Assembly: GCA_005888635.1 (NCBI GenBank)
Contig: VBAW01000017.1
Location: 4,537-68,536, forward strand
Direction of reading: 5' to 3'
Origin: Candidatus Bathyarchaeota archaeon
GTDB taxonomy: Archaea > Thermoproteota > Bathyarchaeia > 40CM-2-53-6
DNA: 64,000 nt
Below, one piece after another: positions 6,770-50,492 of this stretch (positions are counted from its first letter, which is position 1; the number at the start of each line of letters is the position of its first letter). The notes under the pieces were generated by a model. The model made no database searches and was not told the origin of the DNA. It was given only the letters and a program-made list of their open reading frames with translations. A program made the position numbers and the translations under genes.

Positions 6770-7429
6770 ATGAAGATCAAGCTGGCAAGAGGTGGAGAGA
6801 CCAGCATTGTCTACGGTCTGCCCTCCAAGATCCATGATCCATCGACATGCCTCATCATAGCCCACGGCGCCGGGGGACCAATGCACACGCCCTTCATACG
6901 ATATTTCCACACTGAACTCGCAAAGCGAGGCTTCCTGACTGTCAGGTTCAATTTTCCATACATGGAAGCCCGCAGGAGGGTGCCTGACAGGAGAGAGGTC
7001 CTGGAGGAAAGCTACCGCACAATCGTCGACCAAGCAAAGAACGGCACACATAAGCCAGATCGAATGGTCATAGGAGGAAAATCAATGGGGGGACGAATCG
7101 CGTCCCAGATAGCATCCAACGGGGTAGACGTGAACGGACTCTTCTTCCTCGGTTATCCACTCCATCCGATAGGCAAGACTGACCAGCTGAGGGATGAGCA
7201 CCTCTACCGGATCAAGAAGCCGATGCTTTTCTTGTCCGGGACGAGGGATAGTTTTGCCAGACAGGATCTTCTGGAAAAAGTCGTCTCAAGGATAGGATCA
7301 AACGCCCAGATCCATTGGATACAGAACGGAGACCATAGCTTCAAGACTCCTGATACGAAAACCGGCAACACAGGGAGTTTGCGGGAGGCCCTTGCACTTC
7401 TAGTGGATTGGTTGCAAACGATAGCCTAG
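6770..7429 (+). CDS. Alpha/beta hydrolase (dienelactone-hydrolase-like)
   Basis: 219 aa with the nucleophile elbow GGKSMGGRIAS (GxSxG), a late GTRD motif and a C-terminal GDHSF (His). Confidence 0.75.
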   Translation: MKIKLARGGETSIVYGLPSKIHDPSTCLIIAHGAGGPMHTPFIRYFHTELAKRGFLTVRFNFPYMEARRRVPDRREVLEESYRTIVDQAKNGTHKPDRMVIGGKSMGGRIASQIASNGVDVNGLFFLGYPLHPIGKTDQLRDEHLYRIKKPMLFLSGTRDSFARQDLLEKVVSRIGSNAQIHWIQNGDHSFKTPDTKTGNTGSLREALALLVDWLQTIA

Positions 7430-7673
7430 GGATCTGAAAGTCGGCGCGAGCTTCCTGCTCAATACTGTACATTTATTAGAGACGGACTGGGGTCGTGGGC
7501 TTAGAAGAACATTGTGCGACAGTTGCGGCTGTTCTTCAGAGCAGGAAGAGACGACTACTCAACCAGAGGAAGCCTAGCCCTATACCTGCTGGGGCATTGA
7601 AACTTCCCAAAAATCCAACGAAGGAGCAGCTGGGCTCCTTCCATCTTTTCAACCCTACAAAGTACCGAAAATC

Positions 7674-8093
7674 TTAGAGTCCTGGTATCGTCGGAAGAAC
7701 AAACAGAGCCCCTAGAGCTAAGGCCCCAAGAATAAAGATCAGTACTATCCCCACAACGACTGCCATGATTGATGTTCCTATCGCGCCTAACCATCCCGTC
7801 TTGAAGTAGTGTTTCACCAGCAACAGAAATATTAGCAGTCCGAGCAGGATGCCTATTGTTCCTAGGAACGCGATCGAAGCCCCAACTAGGAATGTTCCGA
7901 CACTAGCTATTCCCAAAGCCTCACCGAAAGTTACGCGGCGTCCAACTACTATTTCTCCCGCTAGCCAGAGTACAACCCCGATGACTAGGAGATAGATGAT
8001 GAAGAGGATGAGGAAGGTTATGAGAGTGGCGCTGAGACCTCCGATCGATGGTAGTGCCGGCGCCGGGTTCGCCATGAACGTCTTGCCCTGCAC
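7674..8093 (-). CDS. Hypothetical polytopic membrane protein
   Basis: 139 aa, almost entirely hydrophobic, with about 4 predicted TM helices. Confidence 0.55.
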   Translation of the reverse strand: MQGKTFMANPAPALPSIGGLSATLITFLILFIIYLLVIGVVLWLAGEIVVGRRVTFGEALGIASVGTFLVGASIAFLGTIGILLGLLIFLLLVKHYFKTGWLGAIGTSIMAVVVGIVLIFILGALALGALFVLPTIPGL

Positions 8094-8217
8094 ATCCCCG
8101 ATTGAAATGTCAAGTTATTCTTGATGAAACCTTTCTCATTCATCCATAGTAAGTTTCAGTTCTCTTCCGGGGAATATTGGGAAGGTTTAAGCTTGCACGC
8201 TTTCGGGTAGCGTGATT

Positions 8218-8395
8218 GCCCAGGAAATCAGTATCCGGGCTCGCGCCCCGTCCGTAAAATCCGGACGCGTTAAGGTAGTATAGCCCGGTCCACGGCTTGC
8301 GGGAGCCGGCCGAGAGTATGCACGGCTGTCACCCGTGCGACACTCGAAACGAACGGTCGAGCGCACGGCGGGTTCGAATCCCGCCCTGGGCGCCA
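8218..8395 (+). tRNA. tRNA-Asp (anticodon GUC) with three inferred introns and an encoded CCA
   Basis: Exons are 8218-8224 (GCCCAGG), 8276-8292 (TA GTAT AGCCCGGTCCA), 8316-8341 (GTAT G CACGG CTGTCAC CCGTG CGAC) and 8367-8392 (G GCGGG TTCGAAT CCCGC CCTGGGC G), followed by CCA. The acceptor stem forms a perfect 7 bp. The anticodon GTC is at 8328-8330. Inferred introns are 51, 23 and 25 nt. Confidence 0.8.
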
Positions 8396-8787
8396 AGCCA
8401 CTACACGACATCACTTCGACGCAATGGAGGATTATCTAGAATCGTCATGCTTCAAGTTGAACTATCGGGAACCCTGCCTAGAAACAAGGCTGGCTGACCA
8501 AGTGTCACAACATGCGAGGACCGCACACCTTGATGATCAGTCCAGCTTATCGGTGCTTACGTGATGACCCCGCACTAGCGCCACGCTTCCGACTATCTCG
8601 CAATTGGGAGATTATTCTGGGCGCTGCTCGATGCCGAGCCAAACAGAAGACTCAAGGTTGTATCGATTGTAGCCAGAACAATAATGCGAGTTTCTTGACT
8701 CATGTACGGCATGTGTACCCACTTGTGTTCTTGAGTACTTTAATGGCCCATGACGGGTCGAAATACTCTCGGTTGTAGACGTGTCGG

Positions 8788-8795
8788 TTATATGA
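8788..8795 (+). promoter_or_regulatory. TATA-like box for the oxidoreductase gene (leaderless or very short leader)
   Basis: TTATATGA is centred about 29 nt upstream of the ATG at 8821. Confidence 0.35.
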
Positions 8796-8820
8796 AAAGC
8801 CGCCTAGAGTGTTCCTCATC

Positions 8821-9873
8821 ATGAACCGCCTCAACATCGCAGTCATAGGCGCGGGCTACTGGGGAAAGAAGGTCATAGCCCAGATTCTTGACATAGCCCG
8901 GACTGGAGAAGAGATCAACCTCTATTCTGTAGCTGACAGTTCCCCGATTGCACTCGAACAGTGCAGAAAAGAATTCGGCCCCCTAAACTATCGCTTAGAC
9001 TATCGCGAACTACTCTCAGACCCCAAAGTGTCTGCAGTCCATCTATGCTCCCCGAACCAGACCCATTTTGAAATAGCCTCCGAATTTCTCAGAGAGGGAA
9101 AACACGTTCTGGTCGAGAAACCGCTAGCTATGAAATCCAGAGAGGGCTATGAATTGGTTAGACTCGCCAAAGAACATGGCAGTGTCCTCTGCACCGGCCA
9201 CGTCCACAGATTCAACAACGGCATCAGAGGACTACGACGACTAATGGATAGTGGAGTTCTGGGCGACATCTACTACCTCCGCCTCAAATGGACAGGCTTC
9301 ATGGCCATCCAGAATAACAGAGAAGTAATCACCGACCTGGGACCACACCCCTTCGACATCTGCAACAACCTCCTCGAAACATGGCCCAAGAAGATCTCCT
9401 GCAAAGGGAGAGGCTACAGGTCAAGTGCGGGATACGAAATGGCATCCATCTACTCCGAACACCCAGGCGGATATGACGCTGGCATCGAACTAAGCTGGCT
9501 GGACATGGAGAAACATCGAGACGTGACTGTAGTCGGCAGCGACGGCACTGCGGAGCTAGACTGCATCGAACAGAGACTGGTTTTACACCGGAAGGGAGCG
9601 GTGGAACGCGTAATGGTCGTCCCCAACAACACCCTCCGAGAAGAGATTCTCCACTTTGCCAGATGCATCGAGTACAACTCGTCTGCTGAACACTATCCCA
9701 ACCGGGCTGACGGAACACTTGGAGCCAACGTCGTCAGAGTCCTCGAGACGACGAAAAAGTCTCTTGAGGAGGAACGCACGATCCAAGTTGAAATTCCTCG
9801 CGGCGAACCTATACCAGCTAGTGAACCGATGCCTGGACTACACGCGGAGCCGCCGAGTATGGGGAGCCTCTGA
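8821..9873 (+). CDS. Gfo/Idh/MocA family NAD(P)-dependent oxidoreductase
   Basis: Has the Rossmann motif NIAVIGAGYWGKK and the EKPLA motif. The listed ORF starts at GTG 8809, but the ATG at 8821 fits the TATA spacing better. Confidence 0.85.
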   Translation: MNRLNIAVIGAGYWGKKVIAQILDIARTGEEINLYSVADSSPIALEQCRKEFGPLNYRLDYRELLSDPKVSAVHLCSPNQTHFEIASEFLREGKHVLVEKPLAMKSREGYELVRLAKEHGSVLCTGHVHRFNNGIRGLRRLMDSGVLGDIYYLRLKWTGFMAIQNNREVITDLGPHPFDICNNLLETWPKKISCKGRGYRSSAGYEMASIYSEHPGGYDAGIELSWLDMEKHRDVTVVGSDGTAELDCIEQRLVLHRKGAVERVMVVPNNTLREEILHFARCIEYNSSAEHYPNRADGTLGANVVRVLETTKKSLEEERTIQVEIPRGEPIPASEPMPGLHAEPPSMGSL

Positions 9874-33452: not shown

Positions 33453-34847
33453 CTAGTCCGTGAACTTGTAATGCCGGTAGCCTTGGGGAGTCACATCGAT
33501 CAGAACGAACTCGTTTTCAGGTTCTGCCACAAACTTCCTCCCATCCGGCAGGGGTCCTGCTTCATGAAGCGCCTCATATTCAACCAAGGACACCGGTCTG
33601 CGGTGCTGCAGCTTCTCTGAATGACCAAATTTCCTCGCGACCTCACTCCATCCTTCCTGAAAGACCCAGCTAGAAACTTTTGCTTTAGAGCCGCTACCAT
33701 AGTTCCCGGAACCTCCCCTTCTCCCTGCGAGATCAACGCCTCTCTTCGCCTTTGTTTCAAGAAGCATCGAGAGACAGCTCTTCTCAGAAGCTGAGTAGCT
33801 GTTCCCGCTTTCCTTCGCATGAATGAGACCATCCGCAACTTTGTCCAAGTACTCCCTCTGAAACTGCGGCGTCTCCATGAAGTGGTGCATGTAATCCGAT
33901 TCGGCTTTCTCAAACTCCTCCCTCTTCCTGAAACTCGTAGCTTTGGGCTCGGGTCCAATCTTTTGAGTGACTTCCGTCCAGCGGGGTAGTCCCCGCCAGA
34001 AGTGTCTCAGAAGGTAGGCGAAGCCCTTCTCAGCCATCTTCGGATATGGTACGTGAAACGACATTGGTCCAACATGGTCCACTAATGATTCTCCGGGTCC
34101 AGCCTTGATCAACTTGGCGGCCTCTGCCTGTTCTGCCCAGTCATCAACCGCGCCCTCCATGGCTTTCAGATAGCATTTCTCTGAATGCTTGCCGTGTACT
34201 ACTGCAGTTGTGGAGAATAATGGTCTCCAGAAATCGTCTTCATCCTCCATGTAAGTGCCGATGACGTTGTCGAAGCTTAGCAATCTTGGTTCCTCTCTGA
34301 CCAAAAGTGCGACGGCTCCTGCTCCCTGGGTGGACTCTCCGGGAGTATTCAGCGGATACTTTGCAATGTCTGTTGAGCAGACAATGCTGGATCTGCCGTT
34401 GGCGCGACCTGCCCATGCCCAGTCCAGTGAGCTCTCTAGGGCATCAGCCGTACTGACACAAGCAAACTTGTATTCAACCCCTGACGTTTTCTTGAGGGCA
34501 CCCTTGCCATACTTCTGTTCTAGCATTCCATGAACGTAGGCTGCGACGGGTTTGGACTCGTCAACCCCTGTCTCAGTGGCGATATCGATTCTAGCAATGT
34601 TCGCGGGGGAAAGATTGTTCCGCTCGATTAGTTCGAAGATCGCGTTTGCAGCCAAGACCGAACTGTCCTGGTATGTGTCTGGAATAGACATCTTCGCAAT
34701 CCCGATCCCATGCAGATACTTTGCAGGGTCAGACTCTCTCGCGCGCGAAAACTCAGTAGGCTTTTCCGGATGCTCTTCACTAGCTAATTCCAGATATAAT
34801 CGAGGAACGTAGACCGCAATGTCGTCAATGCCAACGGATGTCTTCAA
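33453..34847 (-). CDS. Hydroxymethylglutaryl-CoA synthase family protein (long form)
   Basis: 464 aa with IDIATETGVDESKP, YKFACVSTADAL (nucleophile Cys region) and GESTQGAGAVALLV. These motifs are typical of HMG-CoA synthases. Confidence 0.85.
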   Translation of the reverse strand: MKTSVGIDDIAVYVPRLYLELASEEHPEKPTEFSRARESDPAKYLHGIGIAKMSIPDTYQDSSVLAANAIFELIERNNLSPANIARIDIATETGVDESKPVAAYVHGMLEQKYGKGALKKTSGVEYKFACVSTADALESSLDWAWAGRANGRSSIVCSTDIAKYPLNTPGESTQGAGAVALLVREEPRLLSFDNVIGTYMEDEDDFWRPLFSTTAVVHGKHSEKCYLKAMEGAVDDWAEQAEAAKLIKAGPGESLVDHVGPMSFHVPYPKMAEKGFAYLLRHFWRGLPRWTEVTQKIGPEPKATSFRKREEFEKAESDYMHHFMETPQFQREYLDKVADGLIHAKESGNSYSASEKSCLSMLLETKAKRGVDLAGRRGGSGNYGSGSKAKVSSWVFQEGWSEVARKFGHSEKLQHRRPVSLVEYEALHEAGPLPDGRKFVAEPENEFVLIDVTPQGYRHYKFTD

Positions 34848-40790: not shown

Positions 40791-41417
40791 CTAGTCGCGA
40801 CGATCTGTCAACATTGTTGCGGGCGGTGGTCCCATTTGTCCCGGCATCGGCTGGGGTCCCATCGGCATCTGCTCTGGGAGAGAGAAGAAGGACACTATTT
40901 GCAGTATTTCTGCTATGAAGACGATTATGAACCCCACGAATATGATTGCAGTTGCGGCTCCGATGAGGTAGAGTAATCCTGTTGTGTGGAATGTTCCTAC
41001 GTTGAGCCTTGTCGCAATGGTGTCATAGCTCCTCTTCAGGAATATTGAGGCAATGAGATAGAAGATCCAAATCACGATGAGCCCAGCAATGATGGACGCT
41101 ATCACTGCGGAGAAGCCGGTCGGCAGAGTCGTCGTTCCGGGGGTGTAGGTATAGCTCCCTAGGCCGATCAGCGAATATACGGCGCCCAGCACGACTACAA
41201 CTCCTACGACTATCCCAATTATCGCCAAGACGACAGCGATGATCATGTTGTTGAAGATCTTTTGATCGCCGAGAATATCTGCAATGTATTTCACGGCGAT
41301 GAGAATCATGATGAAGCCTACAATCGAGAGGACAGCGCCTGCATACGGAATAGGACTCAGAAGAACGAGGATCGACCCAACTCCGCCAAGGGTCTTGGCT
41401 TGTCCCAGGGACGCCAT
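40791..41417 (-). CDS. DUF996-like archaeal membrane protein
   Basis: 208 aa. The N-terminus, LGQAKTLGGVGSILVLLSPIPYAGAVLSIVGFIMILIAVKYIADILGDQKIFNN, matches my memory of the DUF996 family. The C-terminal tail is Pro/Gly/Met-rich. Confidence 0.6.
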   Translation of the reverse strand: MASLGQAKTLGGVGSILVLLSPIPYAGAVLSIVGFIMILIAVKYIADILGDQKIFNNMIIAVVLAIIGIVVGVVVVLGAVYSLIGLGSYTYTPGTTTLPTGFSAVIASIIAGLIVIWIFYLIASIFLKRSYDTIATRLNVGTFHTTGLLYLIGAATAIIFVGFIIVFIAEILQIVSFFSLPEQMPMGPQPMPGQMGPPPATMLTDRRD

Positions 41418-41474: not shown

Positions 41475-42497
41475 CTAGTCGAGCTGGAGCACCATATACG
41501 TCTCGTCGATATATCCTTCCTGTAGCCATCCTGGAAGCTTTCCACACTCGACGAATCCCGCTTTTGCATAGAGTTTCTCAGCGGGATTGTTGCCTTCGAA
41601 AACTGTGAGAATGACTCTAGAGAGGTTAAGCCTCTTGGCGAGCGTCCTCATTGCGTCCATTAACAATGTCCCTACACCAATCCCCTGGTACTCTGCTCTG
41701 ATGTACATGCCGAGACTCATTACATGCTGCATCACATCAGGGCCGAGTCTGAAAAGGTCGAGCAACCCTACAGGCTCCCCAATCGACTCGTCCTCACAGA
41801 CTATAGAAAAAACTCTACGCTTCTCGAACCACTCATCATACGTTCCAGGACCCCAAGGGACTGACCCCTCAAAGACACCATTCGCTATTCCCCGAATGAC
41901 GTTCAGATGAGTCGCGGCTTTGTTCAGGAAGGGACGATCTTCCTTGCGGTAGCCTCTAAGCTTCAGCCTCTGACTCTTCGCCTTGTCAACCTCTAGAATC
42001 GGGTAGAGGCCGGGCTTGGCGTAGCTTCGACGAATACCGAAGTGGTATCGCTCATCGAGCTCTTTGTACAGGTAGTGTAGGTCAAACCTCTTTCCGTCGA
42101 GAGATACCGCACCCGGAATGGATGCACCGACCTTGTAGTCCAGAGCCCTGAGCGCTTGTAGACGCTTGCGATCATAGCCGAAGATGTGGGTTCGAAGAAC
42201 GAGTTTCTCCTGAGCGAGGGCCATGTCCTCGACCTTTCCAACAGCTTCCTTCAGACCGGCGAGGGAGTCTGTCACAATGACGAAATCTGCTCGGGGCGTC
42301 CATTTCTCTCGCCCCGAACTGAAGCAGAAAAGTGCGTCGATTGCTCTTACAGAGTAGAGAAGGAAGCTGCTTCTTTCAGGAAAGTATTCTTTGAAAATTT
42401 CCTCGCTGAGAGGTAGGACATGCCCGATCTGGAGACTTCGGTCGTTCAGATATTTACGTCCCGCATCAACGTCTTGATCGAGCGGAGTTAGGCGCAA
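41475..42497 (-). CDS. GNAT-family N-acetyltransferase (two-domain)
   Basis: The C-terminal half has the acetyl-CoA motif QGIGVGTLLMDAMRTLAKRL ... NNPAEKLYAKAGFVECG. The N-terminal half looks like a degenerate GNAT fold. Confidence 0.7.
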   Translation of the reverse strand: MRLTPLDQDVDAGRKYLNDRSLQIGHVLPLSEEIFKEYFPERSSFLLYSVRAIDALFCFSSGREKWTPRADFVIVTDSLAGLKEAVGKVEDMALAQEKLVLRTHIFGYDRKRLQALRALDYKVGASIPGAVSLDGKRFDLHYLYKELDERYHFGIRRSYAKPGLYPILEVDKAKSQRLKLRGYRKEDRPFLNKAATHLNVIRGIANGVFEGSVPWGPGTYDEWFEKRRVFSIVCEDESIGEPVGLLDLFRLGPDVMQHVMSLGMYIRAEYQGIGVGTLLMDAMRTLAKRLNLSRVILTVFEGNNPAEKLYAKAGFVECGKLPGWLQEGYIDETYMVLQLD

Positions 42498-42566
42498 CTC
42501 TCTCCATCTATCAACGGTCTGGACCGTTTAAGTTAGTTAACAAGGATGGTCAAACCAAGTCACCCA

Positions 42567-43559
42567 TTATCGCTTCCCCATCTCATGCGTCTTCTTCTGT
42601 TGTCTGTTGACTAGGACCACACCTGTCAGAATCAAGGCGAAGCTTACTCCATGCCATGGGCTGAGATTTTCTTTGAGTAGGAGGACTGAGGTTATGACGC
42701 CGAACACTGGGACCAGATTGCCGAAGATTGCTGCTCTTCCGGCTCCGATCTTGGAGACACCTACCACGTAGAAGAAGTAGCCTACTACGGTTGAGAGGAA
42801 GGCGAGGTATAGGATTCCAAGCCATGACAGCGGGCTCCAGCTGTAAGTCCAGGGAGCCTCCAATAGTGATAGGGGAATTAGGAAGAGCCAGCCGAACAGA
42901 GAGATCCATGCGAGGATCGCTAGGGAGGAGGGTGCCGAAACGGAATTGTCTGCCCTGTTTGCTGCTACAAATCCTCTCAAAGTAACAGTGTAGATGGCAT
43001 ACGCAATTGCTCCTCCGAAGACGAGACTTATTCCTAGAGGCCTGTTGAGAACATCGTTGTTGGGAGAGAGTAGAGAGATGACTCCGATGCCTGCGAGTCC
43101 TGAGATGAAGCCCAGACCCTTAGTCTTAGTCAAGCGTTCGTTAAGGACGAACGATGCCATGATTGCTATTAACACGGGTCCTATACCGATGACCAGTGAA
43201 TCATCGCTAGCGGCCGCATATCTGACACCATAGAGGAAGAAGATCTGATACAAGGTCGTAGAAAACAGCCCCATGACGACAAGATTCAAGATCCATTTTC
43301 GTTCAAGCCCGAGTGCTTGTCGTTTAACCCTTAGAATCCCGAACAATACGGGAACAACTATCGCGTATCTCAGCACTGCAATAGACACTGGAGGCAGGTT
43401 TGTCGCCAAGAGCCTGCCGACGGGCCACGCCAGTCCCCAGAGGAACATGGTGAGTAGAAGCTGAGAATAGACGATCCAGTTCCGGCTCTCGACTCCAATC
43501 GTCGTGGCCTCTGTGGGCAGGCGTTGCAGATCGGTCTTGCTCTGCCGGCCTGGGACCAT
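42567..43559 (-). CDS. DMT-superfamily (EamA-type) transporter
   Basis: 330 aa with about 10 TM helices in two EamA-like repeats. Confidence 0.8.
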   Translation of the reverse strand: MVPGRQSKTDLQRLPTEATTIGVESRNWIVYSQLLLTMFLWGLAWPVGRLLATNLPPVSIAVLRYAIVVPVLFGILRVKRQALGLERKWILNLVVMGLFSTTLYQIFFLYGVRYAAASDDSLVIGIGPVLIAIMASFVLNERLTKTKGLGFISGLAGIGVISLLSPNNDVLNRPLGISLVFGGAIAYAIYTVTLRGFVAANRADNSVSAPSSLAILAWISLFGWLFLIPLSLLEAPWTYSWSPLSWLGILYLAFLSTVVGYFFYVVGVSKIGAGRAAIFGNLVPVFGVITSVLLLKENLSPWHGVSFALILTGVVLVNRQQKKTHEMGKR

Positions 43560-43793
43560 GTGGGGAGAGTTTCAGAACGGGATAAGTAGTTTGACTCCGA
43601 ATCTTGCTCTCTAACTAGGCTGATGGTGAAGCAAACCGCAGACCTCAGCACAACTGTTACCACTTACGGTTACCAGATCCGTTACCAATCAAGAAATCCC
43701 AAAAATAATTCATTCCCGCGACACGAGAGTGCTAAACTGGCCGTGCGGAACCTTGGCCAGGGTGAAGAGTCTGCCTTTTTCTGGAGACTGAAG

Positions 43794-44264
43794 CTATGCG
43801 GGCTTGAAAGCTAGAATATCGGTCAGAGCACCGGTCCGTGCTGATGCTTCTTTCAGGATTGAGACGACCTTCATTCCGAAGGTCACGCTGCTGGGTTCGC
43901 TGACGTTCAGTTTGTGAACGATTCCTCCCTTCACTCCTTCAAATCTTATCAGTGCAAGGGTCACTGGTCCGTTAGGTTCTCCTGTTCTATTCCTGTTAAC
44001 GGTCGTGTAGCTGTAGACATATCCTGGCTCTTCGAGGGTTCTCGTCTCTTTCATCTCGATGAAGCAGGATGGACAAAACATTCGGGCGGGAACGTAGCTG
44101 TTCTTGCACTTGGAACACTCCGAAGCCAAGAACCGCCCGTTCCTCTTCAGTTCTCGACGAAACTCTTCCCCGGCCACGCCGGCTGTGTAGTGAAATTCTA
44201 GAGGGATGCTGTCGGTCCAGTGGCGCGCCTGGGACGCTTGGGATATCTTCTCTAGGATTGGCAT
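43794..44264 (-). CDS. DUF35 zinc-ribbon/OB-fold protein
   Basis: 156 aa with ASECSKCKNSYVPARMFCPSC (rubredoxin-like zinc ribbon) followed by an OB-fold-like segment. Confidence 0.75.
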   Translation of the reverse strand: MPILEKISQASQARHWTDSIPLEFHYTAGVAGEEFRRELKRNGRFLASECSKCKNSYVPARMFCPSCFIEMKETRTLEEPGYVYSYTTVNRNRTGEPNGPVTLALIRFEGVKGGIVHKLNVSEPSSVTFGMKVVSILKEASARTGALTDILAFKPA

Positions 44265-44267
44265 GTT

Positions 44268-44780
44268 CTAGGCCTCTATGGGCCTAAAGTATCGAATATC
44301 CGTGATTGCTCCCTGTCTCTCGCTGGGCTGTTTCCAGACCGCTTGGACCTTCATGCCGATCCTTATGCTAGCTGGCTCTACCTCTCCTAGGTTGTGGAGT
44401 ATTCCCATGCCCGGACTGGCGCCGTCTATGTCGACGACCGCGACTAGAATTGGGGTCTTGAGCCGTCTCGCATCGGTACCTACGTGTGAGATGGAGAAAG
44501 TGTTGACCGTCCCGGTGTCTCTGACTTGGACCCATGCGTCTGTGGGTCTGTAGCATTGCTCGCAGTACATTCTTGGAGGAACAAGGATTCGCTCGCACTG
44601 GCTACACTTTCGGGCAACTATCCTTCCCTCTTTCAACTCGTCTAGGAATCTGCTTATTGCGACGCCCGCGGCCCAGCTGTATCGGGGCACGAACTTGTAT
44701 TGGATATCGAGGTACTTTCCTTCCTTCAGCTCATCCGACGTGATCTCGTGGCCTGGATAGCTTGTTATTTTCTGGGACAT
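44268..44780 (-). CDS. DUF35 zinc-ribbon/OB-fold protein (second copy)
   Basis: 170 aa with ARKCSQCERILVPPRMYCEQC followed by an OB-like segment. It ends 3 nt before the next gene. Confidence 0.75.
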   Translation of the reverse strand: MSQKITSYPGHEITSDELKEGKYLDIQYKFVPRYSWAAGVAISRFLDELKEGRIVARKCSQCERILVPPRMYCEQCYRPTDAWVQVRDTGTVNTFSISHVGTDARRLKTPILVAVVDIDGASPGMGILHNLGEVEPASIRIGMKVQAVWKQPSERQGAITDIRYFRPIEA

Positions 44781-44792
44781 TTCTTGTCCACT

Positions 44793-45956
44793 CTATGACC
44801 TCATCACTGCTACAGTACCCACTTGCATCAGATCTCCCCACGCCTGCGCAACGCCTGTCCGGGCGTCCTTCTTGACCTGTCGTTTTCCCGCTTCTCCTCT
44901 CAATTGCCAGAACAGCTCACAGATCTTCATCATGCCAGCGGCGGCGATCGGATTCCCAACTCCCAATAGTCCACCGGAGGGACAGACGGGGAGGTCGCCG
45001 TCCCGCTGGGTTACTCCATCAACAGTCATCTTCGGAGCCTCCCCCTTGCCAGCGAGCTGTAGCCCCTCGAGATGGTGGAGTTCTTTGTAGTCAAAGGGAT
45101 CGTAAGGCTCGGCAATGTCAATCTCCTTCCGAGGGTTCTTGATGCCCGCCATCTTGTAGGCCATCTTGGCCGCCTTCTCAACATACTCCGGATATGCCAA
45201 GTCCCTGTTGGTCCAATGCGTCGAGTCAAGGGTCCAACCTACACCGTCCAGCCAAACAGGCTCATCGGTCAACTTCTTCGCAACCTTCTCCGAAACGAGA
45301 ACGACCGCTGCTGCACCGTCGCTTGGCGGACTTACGTCCAAACGCTTGACAGGAGAACAGATCGGCTCGGAATTCATCACGTCATTCACAGTTATCTTGG
45401 CTCCGAGCTGGGCCGAAGGATGATCAATAGCGTTTCCCTTGTTCTTCACTGCTACCTCTGCGATCTCTTCCTCCTTGATCCCGTACTTGTGCATGTACCG
45501 CCGCATCTCTAGCGAGAAGATCCAGAGCAGTGTGGTACCGAGCGGACGTTCAAGGATCTGGTCAAAGATACTCCAGAAAGCATACTGTGGATGAGGGTGT
45601 AGAGGCGACATCTTCTCCTCCGCGACACAGAGAACCGTATCGTACATTCCGGACGCTACATTCCACCAGCCGCCGATCGGTGTGAAGACTCCTGTTCCAC
45701 CCCCAACATAGACGCGTTCGTGGGGCTTTCCGATTGCTCCCATTCCGTCGAGATAGTATTCTCCTTTCATGTGCACCCCGTCGAAGGCGTCAGGCGCGGA
45801 GCCTGAGACCACGGACTGTATGTCTTTCAGCGTTAGACCCGCCGAGTCTAGGGCCATCTTTGATGCTTCGAAGGAGAGTTCCTTTGGGCTTTCCAGCATA
45901 CGACGTCGGAACAATGTGATTCCAGCGCCTACAATTGCAACTCGACTCTTCATCAC
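44793..45956 (-). CDS. Thiolase-fold (SCP-x-like) protein, apparently lacking the nucleophilic Cys
   Basis: 387 aa with the thiolase-like N-terminus RVAIVGAGITLF, then EEKMS, and C-terminal PSGGLLGVGNPIAAAG ... QLRGEAGKRQV. The position of the catalytic Cys reads VGGGTG, and the usual GHP reads GNP. Confidence 0.8.
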   Translation of the reverse strand: MMKSRVAIVGAGITLFRRRMLESPKELSFEASKMALDSAGLTLKDIQSVVSGSAPDAFDGVHMKGEYYLDGMGAIGKPHERVYVGGGTGVFTPIGGWWNVASGMYDTVLCVAEEKMSPLHPHPQYAFWSIFDQILERPLGTTLLWIFSLEMRRYMHKYGIKEEEIAEVAVKNKGNAIDHPSAQLGAKITVNDVMNSEPICSPVKRLDVSPPSDGAAAVVLVSEKVAKKLTDEPVWLDGVGWTLDSTHWTNRDLAYPEYVEKAAKMAYKMAGIKNPRKEIDIAEPYDPFDYKELHHLEGLQLAGKGEAPKMTVDGVTQRDGDLPVCPSGGLLGVGNPIAAAGMMKICELFWQLRGEAGKRQVKKDARTGVAQAWGDLMQVGTVAVMRS

Positions 45957-45965
45957 AGACTCCTC

Positions 45966-47120
45966 CTAGTTTCCTAGCACCGCTACTGCCCCCGTGGCAG
46001 TGGGTATGCCCCTCCAGCTCTGGACCAAGGCTCTCTTTGCGCTTGGAACCTGCAGTCGGCCTGCTTGTCCTCGCAACTGCATAACTGCCTCTAGCGTCCG
46101 ATGGAGTCCCGTCGCCTCTAGCAAGTGTCCGACTCCAAGTGAGCCCCCTGATGCGTTGACTGGCAATCTTCCATCAATGTCGAAGGCTCCAGCGTCAACC
46201 ATCTTGCCAGCCTTGCCTTTTGTTGCTAGCTTCAACGCTTCCAAGCTTTGTAGCTCCTTGTAGCTGTAGGTATCATCAACCTCGGCCAGGTCGAGATAAC
46301 TAGCGGGACTTCTGATGTTAGCCATCTTGTAGGCTCTGCCCGCTGCCTGTTCAACGTATTCCGCTCGCGCAAGATCTCTGTCTTCAACTACCGGTGTGTC
46401 GGAACTCCATCCAATCCCTTTTATCCAGACTGTATGGTCTCCGAGTTTCCTGGCCTTCTGGGCCGATGCTAGAACGAAAACGATGCTGGCGTCGATTCCC
46501 TTACTTGACTCCAGTTCGGTCAAGGGGGAGGCGGCGACCTGTGAGTTCATCACTATTCCTTTGTCAATGTTGGCTCCGTGAACCCCTCGAGGGTTTGATA
46601 GGGCATTCTTCTTGTTCTTGACCGCCACCTGGGCGCAGTACTCTCTCTTTGTGCCGGTCTCCTTGAGATATCTAGCCATCTCCATTCCTGCGAGGAATCT
46701 GGGGTCCGCGTCGAAGTGGTGATGAGTATAGACTGGGTCGTAGGCGAAACTGGCTATTTCGTCCGGGTTCACGACATCGGAGATTTTACTGTGAGATTCT
46801 ACGACCGCGACGTCAGCGATGCCGGACATGATGTGCATACAGGCTGTAGCTAGTCCGATTATTCCATCTGAGGAGATAGTGCATAATGGTCGTAGGACCG
46901 CGCCCAGCTGGTCGGGCATGTACTCGTCTGTGATGCTGATTCCTTCCCAGAAATCCTCGGTACAGCAGACGAAGCTCTGAACATCCTTTCGAGGGTCTAT
47001 TCCCGCGTCCTCATAGGCGCGAGTTGCAGCTTCAAACATTAGCTCTCGAGTCGAGAGTCCGGGGGTCATAGAATCGAAGCCGGCGTAGCCTACCCCAACG
47101 ATTCCTATCTGGAAGGGCAA
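45966..47120 (-). CDS. Thiolase-fold (SCP-x-like) protein, nucleophile position apparently Ser
   Basis: 384 aa with IGIVGVGYAGF and NASGGSLGVGHLLEATG ... QLRGQAGRLQV. The segment aligning to C-A-(S/T)-G reads S-S-D-G. Confidence 0.8.
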   Translation of the reverse strand: MPFQIGIVGVGYAGFDSMTPGLSTRELMFEAATRAYEDAGIDPRKDVQSFVCCTEDFWEGISITDEYMPDQLGAVLRPLCTISSDGIIGLATACMHIMSGIADVAVVESHSKISDVVNPDEIASFAYDPVYTHHHFDADPRFLAGMEMARYLKETGTKREYCAQVAVKNKKNALSNPRGVHGANIDKGIVMNSQVAASPLTELESSKGIDASIVFVLASAQKARKLGDHTVWIKGIGWSSDTPVVEDRDLARAEYVEQAAGRAYKMANIRSPASYLDLAEVDDTYSYKELQSLEALKLATKGKAGKMVDAGAFDIDGRLPVNASGGSLGVGHLLEATGLHRTLEAVMQLRGQAGRLQVPSAKRALVQSWRGIPTATGAVAVLGN

Positions 47121-47181
47121 GAATCCATCGAGAAAATCGGCGATGAACTGTTTACTATAAGACTTCCGCGAGAAAAAATCG

Positions 47182-48873
47182 TCATTGCGCCATTATGCGT
47201 GGCGTTCCGCAACTGGTGCAGAAATTAGCGGTAGGCGACAGCGGCTGCCCGCATGACCGGCAAAAGCTCGATCCGAAAGCGGGTGCTGGAATCGATTGTG
47301 CTTGAATCATCGCTTGCCGCTGTCTCTCCTTTCTCGCGACGGCTACTGCTACCACAATGGCGATTAGTATCGGTGGAATGACCAGCGTGATCAGTTCTGG
47401 AAGACTGAAGACTTTGGCTATGAGAGACCCGGGATTGCTTATGCTCTGCGTCGTCGTTGAAGATATTCCATAAGGCACTGTGACATGGAAGGTGTAATTG
47501 GCAACTGGCAGCTTTGTGAAGACAGCCTGTCCGTTATTGTCGGTCTTCGCCGTCTCGTTGGTTGAGTCTGGTAGATACATTATGACCGTCGTGTTCTTGA
47601 CTGGAAGTGAGTAGAAGTATCCGACCACGTGCATCGTGACCGAAAAGACATTTGTCGGGACGATCTGGCTGCTCGCGGTTGAGTTGACCACTGCTCCAGT
47701 TGCAACGTTCTTGGCGCGCCATGAGATCTGATTGATCGTCCACTGTCCTGACGGACTGGGAATCTGTTGATTGTTGTAAGTTGTTAGGAATATCTCTCTT
47801 CCAGATGTTGAGTCAGATAGGGAGACCCAAGTTGGCGTGAGGCTGTTCCCATCCATATCGACGAAGGAAAGCGGCGGAAGATTCCAGTTGTTTCCGACGC
47901 ACGACAAAGCTATTGTCGACCACAAGTCTGAGCCGTTAGAGACGCCGCTCCCGCACTGATCTGTAGGATAGGATATGTCACTACCTGTCAAAAAGTCGTT
48001 TTGTCGCCCAAACACTTCAGTGGCGGTGTAGGGATTGGGAAGGGTCATGGAGCTAGTTGCGCCGTATCCAATGTGGACCTTTCCAACCTGGACTAACTGC
48101 CAAGCTCCTGGGTTCGTTTCGTACATGAAACTCTTGAATTCTGCAGGGCCAATAACGTCCGTGTTGGACGTAGTCTGTGCAACCTCTGCAAGAACCGCGG
48201 CCGGGTGACTCCCTGAGTCGGTGTCGCCGCCTCCTAGATAGTACTGTTGTCCTTGCGTTGGGCTCGACCCTAGGAACTGGTTATCCATGTAGAATGACCA
48301 GACACCACTTCCGGTATAGTTCATGGTGTAGGTGTGCCATGATCCGATTGGGCCGGCCGATCCCGCGGGGCCAATTATCGGTGGAGAGTTCGTGTTTCCT
48401 GCTGGGAAGAATTCGTAGAACCATGCGCAACAATAGTACTGGTTAGTTGTGGTTAGCCCATTGTAATATCCGACCTGGACGAAGGCCCCGTTAGCCAGTA
48501 TGCTACCGACCCAGTAAGAGTGCGCATCATTGTTGACCTTGTCGTATACAGTCCTGATCATTACACTTGCGCCTACGCTCTTGTAAATGCCTGAATCGCC
48601 GATCGCTCCTACTTGGAACCAGAAAGGGTCGCCGGCTGTGGCGCTTGTCACTCCCATGGGGCCCTGGGGTATCAGAAGAGGCTGCCCAGAGACCGAGCCG
48701 GAAGGAGCGAGAATATGATTCGAGGTTGCTCCTCCGAAGTAGATAATCCCGACGACAGCGAGAACGATAATGCTCCAGGTCCTCGCGCTCGGGCATCGCC
48801 AGCTGGTCAAGACAAGAGAAGAAAGCCGGTGCGGTGCTGAAAAACGTGTTGTACTAAAGATTAAACGGACCAA
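47182..48873 (-). CDS. Large extracytoplasmic protein with a C-terminal TM helix and cytoplasmic zinc ribbon
   Basis: 563 aa with an N-terminal signal anchor (WSIIVLAVVGIIYFGG). The segment SYWVGSILANGAFVQVGYYNG ... YYCCAWFYEFFP resembles the WVG...Q.G...AW.E..P pattern of concanavalin-like/peptidase-G1 folds. The C-terminus has a TM helix (LITLVIPPILIAIVVAVAV) followed by CRSCG...CTSCG. The start is uncertain: the listed start is a TTG, and another TTG at 48810 is possible. Confidence 0.6.
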   Translation of the reverse strand: MVRLIFSTTRFSAPHRLSSLVLTSWRCPSARTWSIIVLAVVGIIYFGGATSNHILAPSGSVSGQPLLIPQGPMGVTSATAGDPFWFQVGAIGDSGIYKSVGASVMIRTVYDKVNNDAHSYWVGSILANGAFVQVGYYNGLTTTNQYYCCAWFYEFFPAGNTNSPPIIGPAGSAGPIGSWHTYTMNYTGSGVWSFYMDNQFLGSSPTQGQQYYLGGGDTDSGSHPAAVLAEVAQTTSNTDVIGPAEFKSFMYETNPGAWQLVQVGKVHIGYGATSSMTLPNPYTATEVFGRQNDFLTGSDISYPTDQCGSGVSNGSDLWSTIALSCVGNNWNLPPLSFVDMDGNSLTPTWVSLSDSTSGREIFLTTYNNQQIPSPSGQWTINQISWRAKNVATGAVVNSTASSQIVPTNVFSVTMHVVGYFYSLPVKNTTVIMYLPDSTNETAKTDNNGQAVFTKLPVANYTFHVTVPYGISSTTTQSISNPGSLIAKVFSLPELITLVIPPILIAIVVAVAVARKERQRQAMIQAQSIPAPAFGSSFCRSCGQPLSPTANFCTSCGTPRIMAQ

Positions 48874-48901
48874 GGAAAGGGCCGACGATGAGAGAGTCCC
48901 G

Positions 48902-50071
48902 ATGGTCGGTTTCTTTGGTCCGGAACAGAAAGAACTCGTTCAGATGATGTACGGGTCGACATCCGAAGATTATCTGCTCCTTCTTGAGTCGTTGGGAGAT
49001 TTCTTCGAGAAGGAGATAGAGCCGACAGCTCGTCAGATCGACGTGAAGGCAGAGTTTCCTCGAGAGAACATTCGGAAACTCTTCGAGCAAGGATTCACCA
49101 GCATGGGCTTTCCAAAAGATTTTGGTGGCCTTGAACTTCCATGGCCTATTTACGTCGCGGCGATGGAGATGTGCGGGAAGGCTTGCGCAAGCACCGCTCT
49201 CTCCCTCGCCATTCACGGGACCTGTTGTGAGGGAGTTCGCCAATTCAGCAATCCCAGTCAAAAGAAAGAGTATCTTCCCCAGATGATAAGCGGCAAAAAG
49301 TTTGCGGGCTTTTCTTTGACCGAGCCAGGCGCGGGCTCCGACGCACGCAATCTTCAGACCACCGCGCGTCTCGAAGGTGGACAATGGGTGGTGAATGGTA
49401 CGAAAATGTTCACCACAAACGGCGGCCACTGCGATCTCTACTTCCTCTTCGCCAAGACTCCCAAGGGACCCTCAGCATTCCTCGTTGACGCAAAGTCTGC
49501 GAAATCTAGTAAGCATATCGACAAGCTGGGATATCGAGGCTCGGTTACCGCGGAGGTTGTCTTCGAGAATGCTCATGTTCCAAAGGAGAGCCTCGTCGGT
49601 ACCGAGGGAGAGGGTTTCGAGTATGCGAAGAAGATGCTTTTTGGGGGAAGAGTGACTGTCGGGGCCATTTCCACTGGGATTGCTCGGGCTGCTTTTGACA
49701 AGGCTGTCAAGTACAGCAAGGACCGGACCGCTTTTGGGAAACCCCTCTCAGACTTTGAGATGATACAGTCCAAGCTAGCCGACATGCTGACGGATATCAA
49801 CGCGTCGAGGATGATGGTCTACCGAGCAGCATACTTGAAGGACCAAGGAAAGCCGTTCGAGTCTGAGGCTGCCCAAGCCAAGGTCTTCGCTAGCGAGCAT
49901 GGATTGAGAGTCTGCGACGAGGCGATCCAGATACATGGAGGCTATGGCTATGCGGACGAGTTTGATGTGCACCGGCACTGGCGAGATTCAAGACTCAATA
50001 CTCTTGGGGAGGGGACCTCGGAAATCATGAGGCTGATTATCTCGAAGAACATCATTAAGGGGATGAAGTAA
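48902..50071 (+). CDS. Acyl-CoA dehydrogenase
   Basis: FSLTEPGAGSDARNLQTTA and IHGGYGYADEFDVHRHWRDSRLNTLGEGTSEI. The start is set at the ATG at 48902 (MVGFFGPEQ), giving 389 aa. Confidence 0.9.
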   Translation: MVGFFGPEQKELVQMMYGSTSEDYLLLLESLGDFFEKEIEPTARQIDVKAEFPRENIRKLFEQGFTSMGFPKDFGGLELPWPIYVAAMEMCGKACASTALSLAIHGTCCEGVRQFSNPSQKKEYLPQMISGKKFAGFSLTEPGAGSDARNLQTTARLEGGQWVVNGTKMFTTNGGHCDLYFLFAKTPKGPSAFLVDAKSAKSSKHIDKLGYRGSVTAEVVFENAHVPKESLVGTEGEGFEYAKKMLFGGRVTVGAISTGIARAAFDKAVKYSKDRTAFGKPLSDFEMIQSKLADMLTDINASRMMVYRAAYLKDQGKPFESEAAQAKVFASEHGLRVCDEAIQIHGGYGYADEFDVHRHWRDSRLNTLGEGTSEIMRLIISKNIIKGMK

Positions 50072-50492
50072 GCCTCTGACTCTGGTTGTGAGGCTTCCCA
50101 GGCTGGAATGATTATAGTCGATTTTTCGATAGTGCAGGTTTCCGACTGAGTCCTTCCGACACCGCGGATTGCATGTGCAGATCGATGAAAATAGCTCAGA
50201 ATATGCCCTGATCCGAAATCGGGGCAGGCGGTTTGAGATCGCGACTTTTTCACGCTGAGCTCTCCGCTTAGTCTGCAATTGGGAAAACGTCTGATCGTTC
50301 TATTCTACGCCCTGAACAACGAGACTCGCCCATTTCATTTTCAACTGGCAGGACCCCTCTCCGAAAAATCTCAAAAGCAGTTGATCCTCGCGACACGAAA
50401 CTGCCTTTCAACCCTAAGGTTATTACAATCCGAGGGGTCGGTGACGGTTATCTGGAATAGTCGTGTTTACAATCAGAAGAGCCAGGAATTAG

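Follow-up and report, generated by a model that had tools for sequence, protein, structure and literature searches.

The subject of this analysis is a four-gene operon at positions 43794-47120 of a 64,000-nucleotide stretch of a Candidatus Bathyarchaeota archaeon genome (GenBank assembly GCA_005888635.1, contig VBAW01000017.1, positions 4,537 to 68,536; hereafter the window). It encodes two proteins of thiolase fold, designated T1 and T2, followed by two DUF35 proteins, D1 and D2. From their residues it is nearly certain that T1 and T2 are not conventional thiolases, and the system is best regarded as a putative thiolase-fold/DUF35 complex with a repurposed active site. It is real, widespread and probably mis-annotated, its families being recognised by NCBI but lacking a functional name. 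The explanation favoured here, to which a probability of roughly 0.45 is assigned, is that the four products may constitute a heteromeric lyase in which T2 is the catalytic subunit and a short, beta-substituted acyl-CoA is cleaved or formed without thiolysis.

Open reading frames (ORFs) for all four proteins are present on the minus strand: T1 at 45966..47120 (384 aa, TTG start), T2 at 44793..45956 (387 aa, GTG start), D1 at 44268..44780 (170 aa) and D2 at 43794..44264 (156 aa), separated by gaps of 9, 12 and 3 nt respectively. An alternative ATG one codon inside the GTG start of T2, with GGAGG just upstream, would give a product of 386 aa. A TATA-like TTATAG is found ~35 nt upstream of the T1 start, and a T-run (TTATTTTTGG) ~95 nt downstream of D2. 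T1 and T2, which are 38% identical to one another, match Pfam Thiolase_C_1 (1.6e-30 and 6.7e-33 respectively) and also Thiolase_N. D1 and D2 match, above the gathering cut-offs, both zf-ChsH2 (5e-9 and 3e-8) and OB_ChsH2_C (1.1e-14 and 4e-8), and each has the rubredoxin-like, four-cysteine zinc ribbon followed by an OB fold that defines DUF35 (PF12172 + PF01796). The 64-kb window contains no thiolase or DUF35 gene other than these four. A first-pass annotation, made from the letters of the window, had described four tightly packed minus-strand genes for two SCP-x-type thiolase-fold and two DUF35 proteins, with no nucleophilic cysteine in either thiolase-fold protein and with GNP replacing the conserved GHP in one; each of these descriptions agrees with the present results.

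Active-site residues were assigned from HMMER alignments to the solved archaeal thiolases of M. thermolithotrophicus (6esq) and P. furiosus (7yvy), and conservation was counted over 73-80 orthologues taken from related loci. The position of the thiolase nucleophile (the Cys of aaCasg) is occupied in T2 by Gly86 (VGGGTG) and in T1 by Ser83 (ISSDG); a deletion of three to four residues precedes the site in T1, and MAFFT instead places it on T1 Gly86, which is still not a cysteine. The HDCF motif, which in SCP2-type thiolases holds the acid/base cysteine, reads YDPF in T2 and DDTY in T1, and the equivalents of GHP are GNP and GHL. Since its nucleophile is replaced by glycine and its acid/base cysteine by proline, T2 should be unable to form an acyl-enzyme. 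Residues G86, Y285, D286, P287, F288, Y290, K291, E292, H294, H295 and N335 of T2 are invariant in 80 orthologues, as is Gly374. In T1 the invariant residues over 73 orthologues are Thr81, Asp85, Glu280, Asp283, Lys288 and Asn322, and the nucleophile-equivalent residue is variable (Ser in 68%, otherwise Pro, Ala or Thr); only 17 of 74 orthologues have the GHL histidine, His332, the others carrying Tyr, Asn or Trp. Because neither its serine nor its histidine is conserved, T1 is taken to be a degenerate and probably non-catalytic partner, not a second active site, with T2 the probable catalytic subunit.

No cysteine is invariant in either T1 or T2 across these orthologues, and the most conserved one in T2, at position 108 (95% of orthologues), is valine in the window's own protein. 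Two candidates for a displaced catalytic apparatus in T1 were rejected: Cys80, which is phenylalanine in 51% of orthologues and aligns with a non-catalytic cysteine of 6esq, and the Ser/His pair, neither member of which is conserved. The zinc ribbons of the DUF35 proteins are well preserved, with Cys59, Cys62 and Cys73 of D1 invariant and Cys76 present in 92% of 76 orthologues, and all four ribbon cysteines of D2 invariant in 73.

T2 is a member of the NCBIfam family PRK06065 (682 bits, against a cut-off of 455), and T1 falls just under the cut-off of its best match, PRK06066 (490 bits against 516), such that its membership is borderline. Both models are equivalogs named only 'thiolase domain-containing protein'. 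A word-indexed search recovered 7239 homologues at E<=1e-20, and among the best 120, at 75-100% identity, are records of Nitrososphaerota/Thaumarchaeota, Thermoprotei and Marsarchaeota; a large number of these are labelled 'acetyl-CoA C-acetyltransferase' by JGI, a label that the active-site residues contradict. When GTDB was scanned with one genome per species, at least 574 stretches proved to encode a relative. Those examined further, the 80 best loci at 71-98% identity, derive from soil 'Bathyarchaeota' metagenome-assembled genomes (MAGs), Bathyarchaeia, soil Nitrososphaerales, Conexivisphaerales, Thorarchaeota, Geoarchaeota and others, and the order T1-T2-D1-D2 is kept in approximately 70 of them. 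The arrangement of two thiolase-fold and two DUF35 genes is hence no peculiarity of this archaeon but the standard form of a large and old family (PRK06065/PRK06066). Within the window's own clade of soil 'Bathyarchaeota' MAGs identity reaches 92-98%, the closest contigs being from soil MAGs labelled archaeon or Bathyarchaeota (96-98% protein identity); the window is ~84% identical at the DNA level to two Angelo-type soil MAG contigs, and some 20 soil metagenome runs contain it almost in full. The literature that could be searched contained no description of the four-gene cluster or of the loss of the cysteine.

The four proteins differ considerably in their rates of change. Across Bathyarchaeia, Nitrososphaeria, Thorarchaeota and Geoarchaeota the identity of T2 remains at 71-78%, and the mean pairwise distance of 0.24 for T2 is to be compared with 0.42 for D1, 0.44 for T1 and 0.56 for D2; T2 is therefore the constrained subunit, and T1, evolving about twice as fast, and D2, the fastest of the four and less well conserved than D1, are the loose ones. 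Searching 1.84 billion cluster representatives exhaustively with HMMER yielded 524 matches at E<=1e-30. Representatives of the tight T2 family itself are 47-63% identical to T2, and beyond it the full-length relatives fall into three groups: a T2-type clade, a T1-type clade with an x-Asp-Gly motif in the nucleophile region and, further out, genuine Cys/His thiolases. In 22 representatives of the T2-type clade, 35-63% identical to T2, the signature Gly/Tyr/(Pro or Ala)/Asn at positions 86, 285, 287 and 335 is retained although most other positions have changed, which speaks for a functional role.

It is very likely, judging from the organisation of the loci, that the four products form one heteromeric complex, as the first-pass annotation had proposed. 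This is supported by the synteny described above and by a natural fusion: in one bacterium (locus L083, 2585-4780) T2, D1 and D2 are joined in a single protein of 731 aa (P0122), with a T1-like gene immediately upstream. The second DUF35 module of this protein lacks most of the zinc-ribbon cysteines, and a PBP1-type transglycosylase/transpeptidase is encoded next door. Co-variation of the distance matrices (partial r of 0.64 for T1-D2, 0.47 for T2-D1 and 0.46 for T2-D2) is a weak hint only as to which subunits pair, because all matrices are dominated by the shared phylogeny (r 0.87-0.94).

T1 and T2 are also represented in metatranscriptomes. Over positions 42500-50300, 22 near-identical contigs were found in four soil metatranscriptomes of one study, in which carry-over of DNA is possible. 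Sixteen lie within T1/T2, including one that bridges the junction between them (45941-46299); three have their ends at 47096-47109, within T1 and close to its start, and three match the gene for a 563-aa protein upstream of T1. No contig covers D1 or D2, which at this shallow depth is not evidence of absence. Given the number of GTDB stretches encoding a relative and the coverage of T1 and T2 by these contigs, T1-T2-D1-D2 are real and apparently expressed genes, not chance ORFs.

Among thiolase folds that have lost the nucleophile, T2 bears comparison with Sal and Ltp2. All three have a glycine at the nucleophile position and the tyrosine of a Y-D-x-F motif, and in each the histidine of GHP is replaced (by Gln in Sal, Tyr in Ltp2 and Asn in T2); the oxyanion-hole glycine is kept and, as in the Sal-Shy and Ltp2-ChsH2 complexes (9myr, 6ok1), an SCP2-type thiolase fold occurs alongside DUF35. 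The motif at the HDCF position is HDCF in SCP2 thiolases, YDCF in the trypanosomal SLP (TbSLP), YDCY in Sal and YDHF in Ltp2; Sal uses Tyr302 as base and Cys304 as acid, with Gly391 adding to the oxyanion hole, and Ltp2 uses Tyr294 as base and Tyr344, which corresponds to Sal Gln352, as acid, the backbone NH of the glycine at the nucleophile position touching the substrate hydroxyl in both (PMC12329534). A 108-residue fragment of T2 aligns without gaps to CtSal (9myr_A), residues 283-381 falling on chain positions 324-422 (99 residues). Read from these coordinate ranges, with a single offset of 24 for the tag that reproduces three published residue numbers, the alignment equates Tyr285 of T2 with Tyr302 of Sal, Asn335 with Gln352, Gly374 with Gly391, Pro287 with Cys304 and Leu330 with Gln347; Gly86 equates with Sal Gly89. 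The combination of the nucleophile-position glycine with the base tyrosine that marks Ltp2 and Sal is found in T2 and is absent from T1. The analogy with Ltp2-type retro-aldolases drawn in the first-pass annotation is strengthened for T2 by its glycine and its Y-D-x-F tyrosine. T1 is degenerate at these sites, and T2 lacks the general acid of both enzymes.

Differences from Sal and Ltp2 are nonetheless evident. These are homodimers whose two DUF35 domains are identical and form fusions with a MaoC hydratase, whereas the operon would specify a T1/T2 heterodimer and encodes two distinct, free-standing DUF35 proteins; they originate from bacterial steroid catabolism, whereas T1-T2-D1-D2 is archaeal and occurs in the context of short-chain acyl-CoA metabolism. 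Nor is the overall sequence of T2 any closer to them than to true thiolases, since searching the PDB gives 86 bits for Ltp2 and 78 bits for Sal (22-26% identity) against 164 bits for 7yvy. The archaeal thiolases 6esq and 7yvy, which are also paired with DUF35, are the closest solved sequences and folds (30-32% identity, TM-score 0.85-0.90). A single-chain AlphaFold2 model of T2, from an alignment of 25 sequences (pLDDT 71.9, pTM 0.82), is predicted to resemble archaeal thiolases most closely, followed by ST0096, BbsB, SCP2 thiolase, PhlC and TbSLP and, at a short distance, by Ltp2 and Sal.

Despite this similarity, the operon is unlike that of the archaeal thiolase of the mevalonate pathway. 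The latter keeps the CxS cysteine, HDxF and GHx, which are the hallmarks of ACAT (PMC12960953), whereas T1 and T2 have lost them: all three are absent from T2, and in T1 they are absent or not conserved. Against the model of that thiolase, NF053570 (AcCoTHIOL_METTL), T2 and T1 score 210 and 167 bits, far below the cut-off of 600, and the operon has two thiolase-fold and two DUF35 genes without an archaeal-type synthase of 3-hydroxy-3-methylglutaryl-CoA (HMG-CoA). In related Bathyarchaeia loci, furthermore, a separate canonical SCP2-type thiolase (PRK06064, 507 bits against a cut-off of 420) is found with its own DUF35 gene, divergently transcribed. The earlier view that this is not an acetoacetyl-CoA thiolase of the mevalonate pathway is thus upheld.

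The PhlACB and MucABC systems likewise combine two different thiolase-superfamily subunits with DUF35, and in these PhlA/MucA is catalytically dead yet required (PMC12960953). There the dead subunit is HMG-CoA synthase-like and the active PhlC/MucB keeps the cysteine and GHx, whereas T1 and T2 are both SCP2-thiolase-like and both lack the cysteine, so the pairing of subunits that characterises these Friedel-Crafts acyltransferases, an HMG-CoA synthase-like dead one with an ACAT-like one bearing Cys and GHx, does not occur here. TbSLP (5ab4-7) is, like T2, an SCP2-type fold without the nucleophile, but keeps the cysteine of YDCF that T2 does not. ST0096 of S. tokodaii (4yzo) has serine at the nucleophile position and HDMA for HDCF but retains GHP, and hence a histidine in both motifs; few solved structures are closer than this 'thiolase-like protein' to T2 or to a T2-like protein from Rhodococcus. 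No DUF35 partner of TbSLP or ST0096 turned up in these searches, none of which was aimed at one. For the DUF35 proteins themselves, the best PDB match is SSO2064 of S. solfataricus (3irb), at 1.7e-18 over residues 8-116 of D2 and at 8e-15 for D1, ahead in the latter case of the DUF35 domains of ChsH2 and Shy. SSO2064 was the first DUF35 structure, and the thiolase neighbourhood of the family was remarked upon (PMC2954200); it shares the helix, zinc-ribbon and OB layout of D1 and D2, but is of structural-genomics origin and has no assigned function. A preprint on archaeal fatty-acid synthase deals with cysteine-containing ketothiolase/DUF35 pairs only (bioRxiv 10.1101/2024.07.05.601840). The adjacent Msed_0270 and Msed_0271 of M. 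sedula, listed as candidates for the acetoacetyl-CoA beta-ketothiolase of the 3-hydroxypropionate/4-hydroxybutyrate cycle (PMC7078158, Table 1), may be this cysteine-less pair.

The T1-T2-D1-D2 operon also occurs in some bacteria, where T1-type and T2-type genes are likewise found adjacent to DUF35 genes. One bacterial locus (L081) carries a T1-like domain, a T2-like gene and a DUF35 gene in succession. Another (L084, 3075-9155) has two divergent copies of this triad, one of them preceded by a MaoC hydratase with a Pfam match to mesaconyl-CoA hydratase, and has genes for an acyl-CoA dehydrogenase, an AMP-ligase and a beta-keto acid cleavage enzyme (BKACE) nearby. A 63% identical T2 orthologue (L086) is accompanied by T1, D1 and D2, and an enoyl-CoA hydratase of the crotonase family is encoded ~1 kb downstream. 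On plasmid pLP1 of Rhodococcus qingshengii (L082, 6093-8691) are found a thiolase, two acyl-CoA dehydrogenases, a MaoC pair, T1-like, T2-like and DUF35 genes, a CoA-transferase, a short-chain dehydrogenase/reductase and FadD. The mycobacterial igr operon, with Ltp2 as its aldolase, is laid out in the same way. The T2-like protein of pLP1 has TGGATG, YAPF and ANP, and thus glycine at the nucleophile position and asparagine for the GHP histidine, and its T1-like partner is a 304-aa 'hypothetical protein' with a truncated thiolase fold, the gene for which overlaps the start of the T2-like gene. The T2-like proteins of pLP1 and L084 fill the aldolase slot of dehydrogenase-hydratase-lyase modules, and the pLP1 operon suggests that actinobacterial side-chain degradation clusters, too, contain heteromeric T1/T2-type lyases. 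Querying 72,556 plasmids with T2 by tblastn found no orthologue, all matches, that on pLP1 among them, being below 38% identity.

No single neighbour is universal. An acyl-CoA dehydrogenase gene, noted in the first-pass annotation, is indeed present in the window at 48902..50071 on the plus strand, divergent to the operon; its product has all three Pfam domains of the family and is of the short-chain, butyryl-CoA type, with the Bcd of a Bcd/Etf complex (5ol2_C) and short-chain acyl-CoA dehydrogenases as best PDB matches (~1e-89). Such a gene lies near the cluster in 23 of the 80 loci, from several lineages, and these loci often add electron transfer flavoprotein (ETF) alpha and beta subunits, a membrane Fe-S/CCG oxidoreductase, a second acyl-CoA dehydrogenase and a FadD-like ligase. 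The window's dehydrogenase, a recurrent neighbour, is not part of the complex but probably belongs to the same pathway. A type II thiolase occurs near the cluster in 12 loci. T2 and D1 are separated in about 11 Nitrososphaerales loci by the gene of an acetoacetate-CoA ligase (930 bits against a cut-off of 639); in L048, for instance, T2 ends at 7167, the ligase occupies 7324-9276 and D1 starts at 9311, leaving gaps of 157 and 35 nt, and a genuine thiolase is found downstream in this lineage. In 15-17 Bathyarchaeia loci D2 is followed by the N and C subunits of methylmalonyl-CoA mutase, MeaB and CobA. What these neighbourhoods have in common is the catabolism of short-chain acyl-CoA in the presence of a genuine thiolase.

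Four of the Bathyarchaeia loci (L030, L035, L037 and L046; e.g. 8144-9379 in L046) have, between D2 and the mutase genes, a gene similar to beta-ketoacyl-ACP synthase III (KAS III) and type III polyketide synthases, with weak matches to DpgA and FabH; its identification as an HMG-CoA synthase was considered and rejected. The HMG-CoA synthase reported in the window by the first-pass annotation is real and separate from the operon. It lies 10 kb away at 33453-34847 on the minus strand, encodes 464 aa of the bacterial/eukaryotic type (PF01154+PF08540), and has as its best NCBIfam match the haloarchaeal HMG-CoA synthase, with 307 bits where the cut-off is 800. The gene is isolated between ABC-transporter genes, whereas the usual archaeal enzyme is encoded in an operon with a thiolase and DUF35.

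Gene structure, loss of the cysteines, conservation across the family, synteny, the fusion and expression are observed, and the stoichiometry, catalytic subunit, type of chemistry and substrate that can be proposed for the complex are all inferred. In the favoured explanation, the assembly would most simply be T1·T2·D1·D2, a heterodimeric version of the alpha2beta2 thiolase/DUF35 assemblies known from Sal, Ltp2, BbsAB and the ketothiolase of S. acidocaldarius. Catalysis would fall to T2 alone, which would retain the thiolase fold and probably the acyl-CoA site; the backbone NH of Gly86 could hold the beta-oxygen, as in Ltp2 and Sal, and Tyr285 of Y-D-P-F, replacing the histidine of HDCF, could act as general base. 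T1 would be a degenerate paralogue supplying the dimer interface, and D1 and D2 would serve as zinc-ribbon/OB clamps, each thiolase-fold protomer having one to complete its substrate cleft. The reaction would be a retro-aldol or Claisen-type C-C cleavage, or its reverse, of a short beta-hydroxy- or beta-substituted acyl-CoA, giving acetyl- or propionyl-CoA and a carbonyl compound within short-chain acyl-CoA catabolism. Chemistry of this kind seems most consistent with the data because of Gly86, Tyr285 and Gly374, together with the dehydrogenase-hydratase-lyase context of the T2-type relatives. A concrete candidate would be the conversion of HMG-CoA to acetoacetate and acetyl-CoA, proposed because of the acetoacetate-CoA ligase between T2 and D1 and the genuine thiolase downstream; malyl-, methylmalyl- and citramalyl-CoA-type substrates and 3-hydroxybutyryl-CoA are equally open.

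Several observations weigh against this proposal. Its main weakness is the missing general acid: T2 has Pro287 where Sal has Cys304 and Ltp2 His296, and Asn335 where Ltp2 has Tyr344, so that some other proton donor is needed, and none was identified. For this reason retro-aldol chemistry does not follow from demonstrated membership of a known group. T2 is in fact not a member of the Ltp2 family by sequence, scoring 138 bits against the cut-off of 469 of PRK07855 ('lipid-transfer protein'), a model that we take to represent Ltp2 from its length and name. The structural model confirms the fold but does not bear on the geometry of the pocket, as pLDDT falls below 50 at residues 55-64, 117-142 and 328-336, which are active-site loops. 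No hydratase gene adjoins the cluster in the window or in most archaeal loci, unlike in ChsH/Ltp2 and Shy/Sal, and the link with acetoacetate-CoA ligase is confined to one lineage. The Bathyarchaeia context of methylmalonyl-CoA mutase, MeaB and CobA would suit a decarboxylase or a propionyl-CoA-linked role equally well. A more far-reaching version, which we consider doubtful, is that T1/T2/D1/D2 may be an unrecognised, widespread, cysteine-independent thiolase-fold lyase of central acyl-CoA metabolism in TACK and Asgard archaea that replaces a missing or misassigned enzyme, such as a non-orthologous HMG-CoA lyase or a malyl-, methylmalyl- or citramalyl-CoA-type lyase. Tyr285 might then work with an acid supplied by T1 or a DUF35 subunit, in an apparatus unlike that of Ltp2 and Sal.

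It is also conceivable, if unlikely, that no reaction is catalysed at all, and that the four proteins are a scaffold, an acyl-CoA-binding or a regulatory module docking onto a thiolase, reductase, hydratase or dehydrogenase. DUF35 mediates assembly both in the thiolase/HMG-CoA synthase complex of M. thermolithotrophicus and in the ketothiolase/reductase/dehydratase complex of S. acidocaldarius (bioRxiv 10.1101/2024.07.05.601840), and PhlA/MucA provide the precedent of dead thiolase-superfamily subunits needed for activity (PMC12960953). Genuine thiolases are frequent neighbours, and the very high conservation of T2 could stem from many protein interfaces. Yet the conserved residues gather at the former active site (Gly86, Tyr285, Asp286, Asn335 and Gly374) and are kept in relatives at 35-40% identity, which would not be expected of a pure scaffold. 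In every dead-subunit case known to us, moreover, a catalytic site survives in at least one partner, a role for which T2 would be the obvious choice here. An acyl-CoA decarboxylase, in which the oxyanion hole would stabilise the enolate after loss of CO2 from malonyl-, methylmalonyl- or another beta-carboxy-acyl-CoA, is a rather improbable alternative; KSQ/CLF ketosynthases decarboxylate in this way. The mutase, MeaB and CobA genes directly after the operon in Bathyarchaeia recall the sbm-ygfD-ygfG succinate-to-propionate operon of E. coli, in which a methylmalonyl-CoA decarboxylase follows the mutase; this neighbourhood is restricted to one class, however, the other lineages having acyl-CoA dehydrogenase, ETF and thiolase genes or acetoacetate-CoA ligase. 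TbSLP, a structural neighbour of the T2 model with YDCF, has slow malonyl-CoA decarboxylase activity, but this is very low, Sal with the same tyrosine has none (PMC12329534), and T2 lacks the cysteine of the motif.

The remaining alternative, an unconventional thiolase or acyltransferase in which either Ser83 and His332 of T1 do the work or CoA attacks directly and no acyl-enzyme is formed, is very improbable. The window's T1 does have serine at the HMMER-aligned nucleophile position and the histidine of GHL, the KAS III-like DpsC is known to use serine, and the ligase found within the operon of one lineage would yield acetoacetyl-CoA, the classic thiolase substrate. The incomplete conservation of both residues and the rapid evolution of T1 argue against this, as does redundancy, since a canonical thiolase is usually encoded nearby; we know of no precedent for cysteine-free thiolysis in a thiolase fold.

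Three further genes flanking the operon were noted. A 563-aa protein is encoded at 47182-48873 on the minus strand, directly upstream of T1 (61-nt gap) and between it and the acyl-CoA dehydrogenase gene; it has an N-terminal hydrophobic segment, weak CarboxypepD_reg/SdrD_B-like matches to Ig folds, a C-terminal transmembrane segment and a terminal zinc ribbon, and its conservation at this place is limited to the nine soil-MAG loci closest to the window, all of its clade. On the other side, a 208-aa multi-pass membrane protein with a C-terminal tail rich in Pro, Gly, Met and Gln (40791-41417, minus strand) adjoins a 340-aa protein (41475-42497, minus strand) that has a GNAT acetyltransferase domain in its C-terminal half only, the N-terminal ~170 aa being without a Pfam match.

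Members of the family are routinely labelled acetyl-CoA C-acetyltransferase, and when butyrate, acetoacetate, mevalonate, fatty-acid and CO2-fixation pathways of uncultured archaea are reconstructed, this label is carried along; the residues described here imply that members so labelled cannot be thiolases in the usual sense. Should the reading as a lyase of central acyl-CoA metabolism prove true, every 'acetyl-CoA acetyltransferase' call on these genes in archaeal reconstructions would be wrong. The family concerned is large, comprising thousands of metagenome proteins in addition to the species-genome stretches found in GTDB, and its members are among the more conserved proteins common to Bathyarchaeia, soil Nitrososphaeria and Thorarchaeota. 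Knowing the reaction would correct these reconstructions and add to the few thiolase folds known to have been repurposed for non-thiolytic chemistry, which to our knowledge have so far been confined to steroid-degrading bacteria and trypanosomes. It would also account for the retention of a heterodimer with two distinct DUF35 clamps from a time before the major archaeal phyla diverged.

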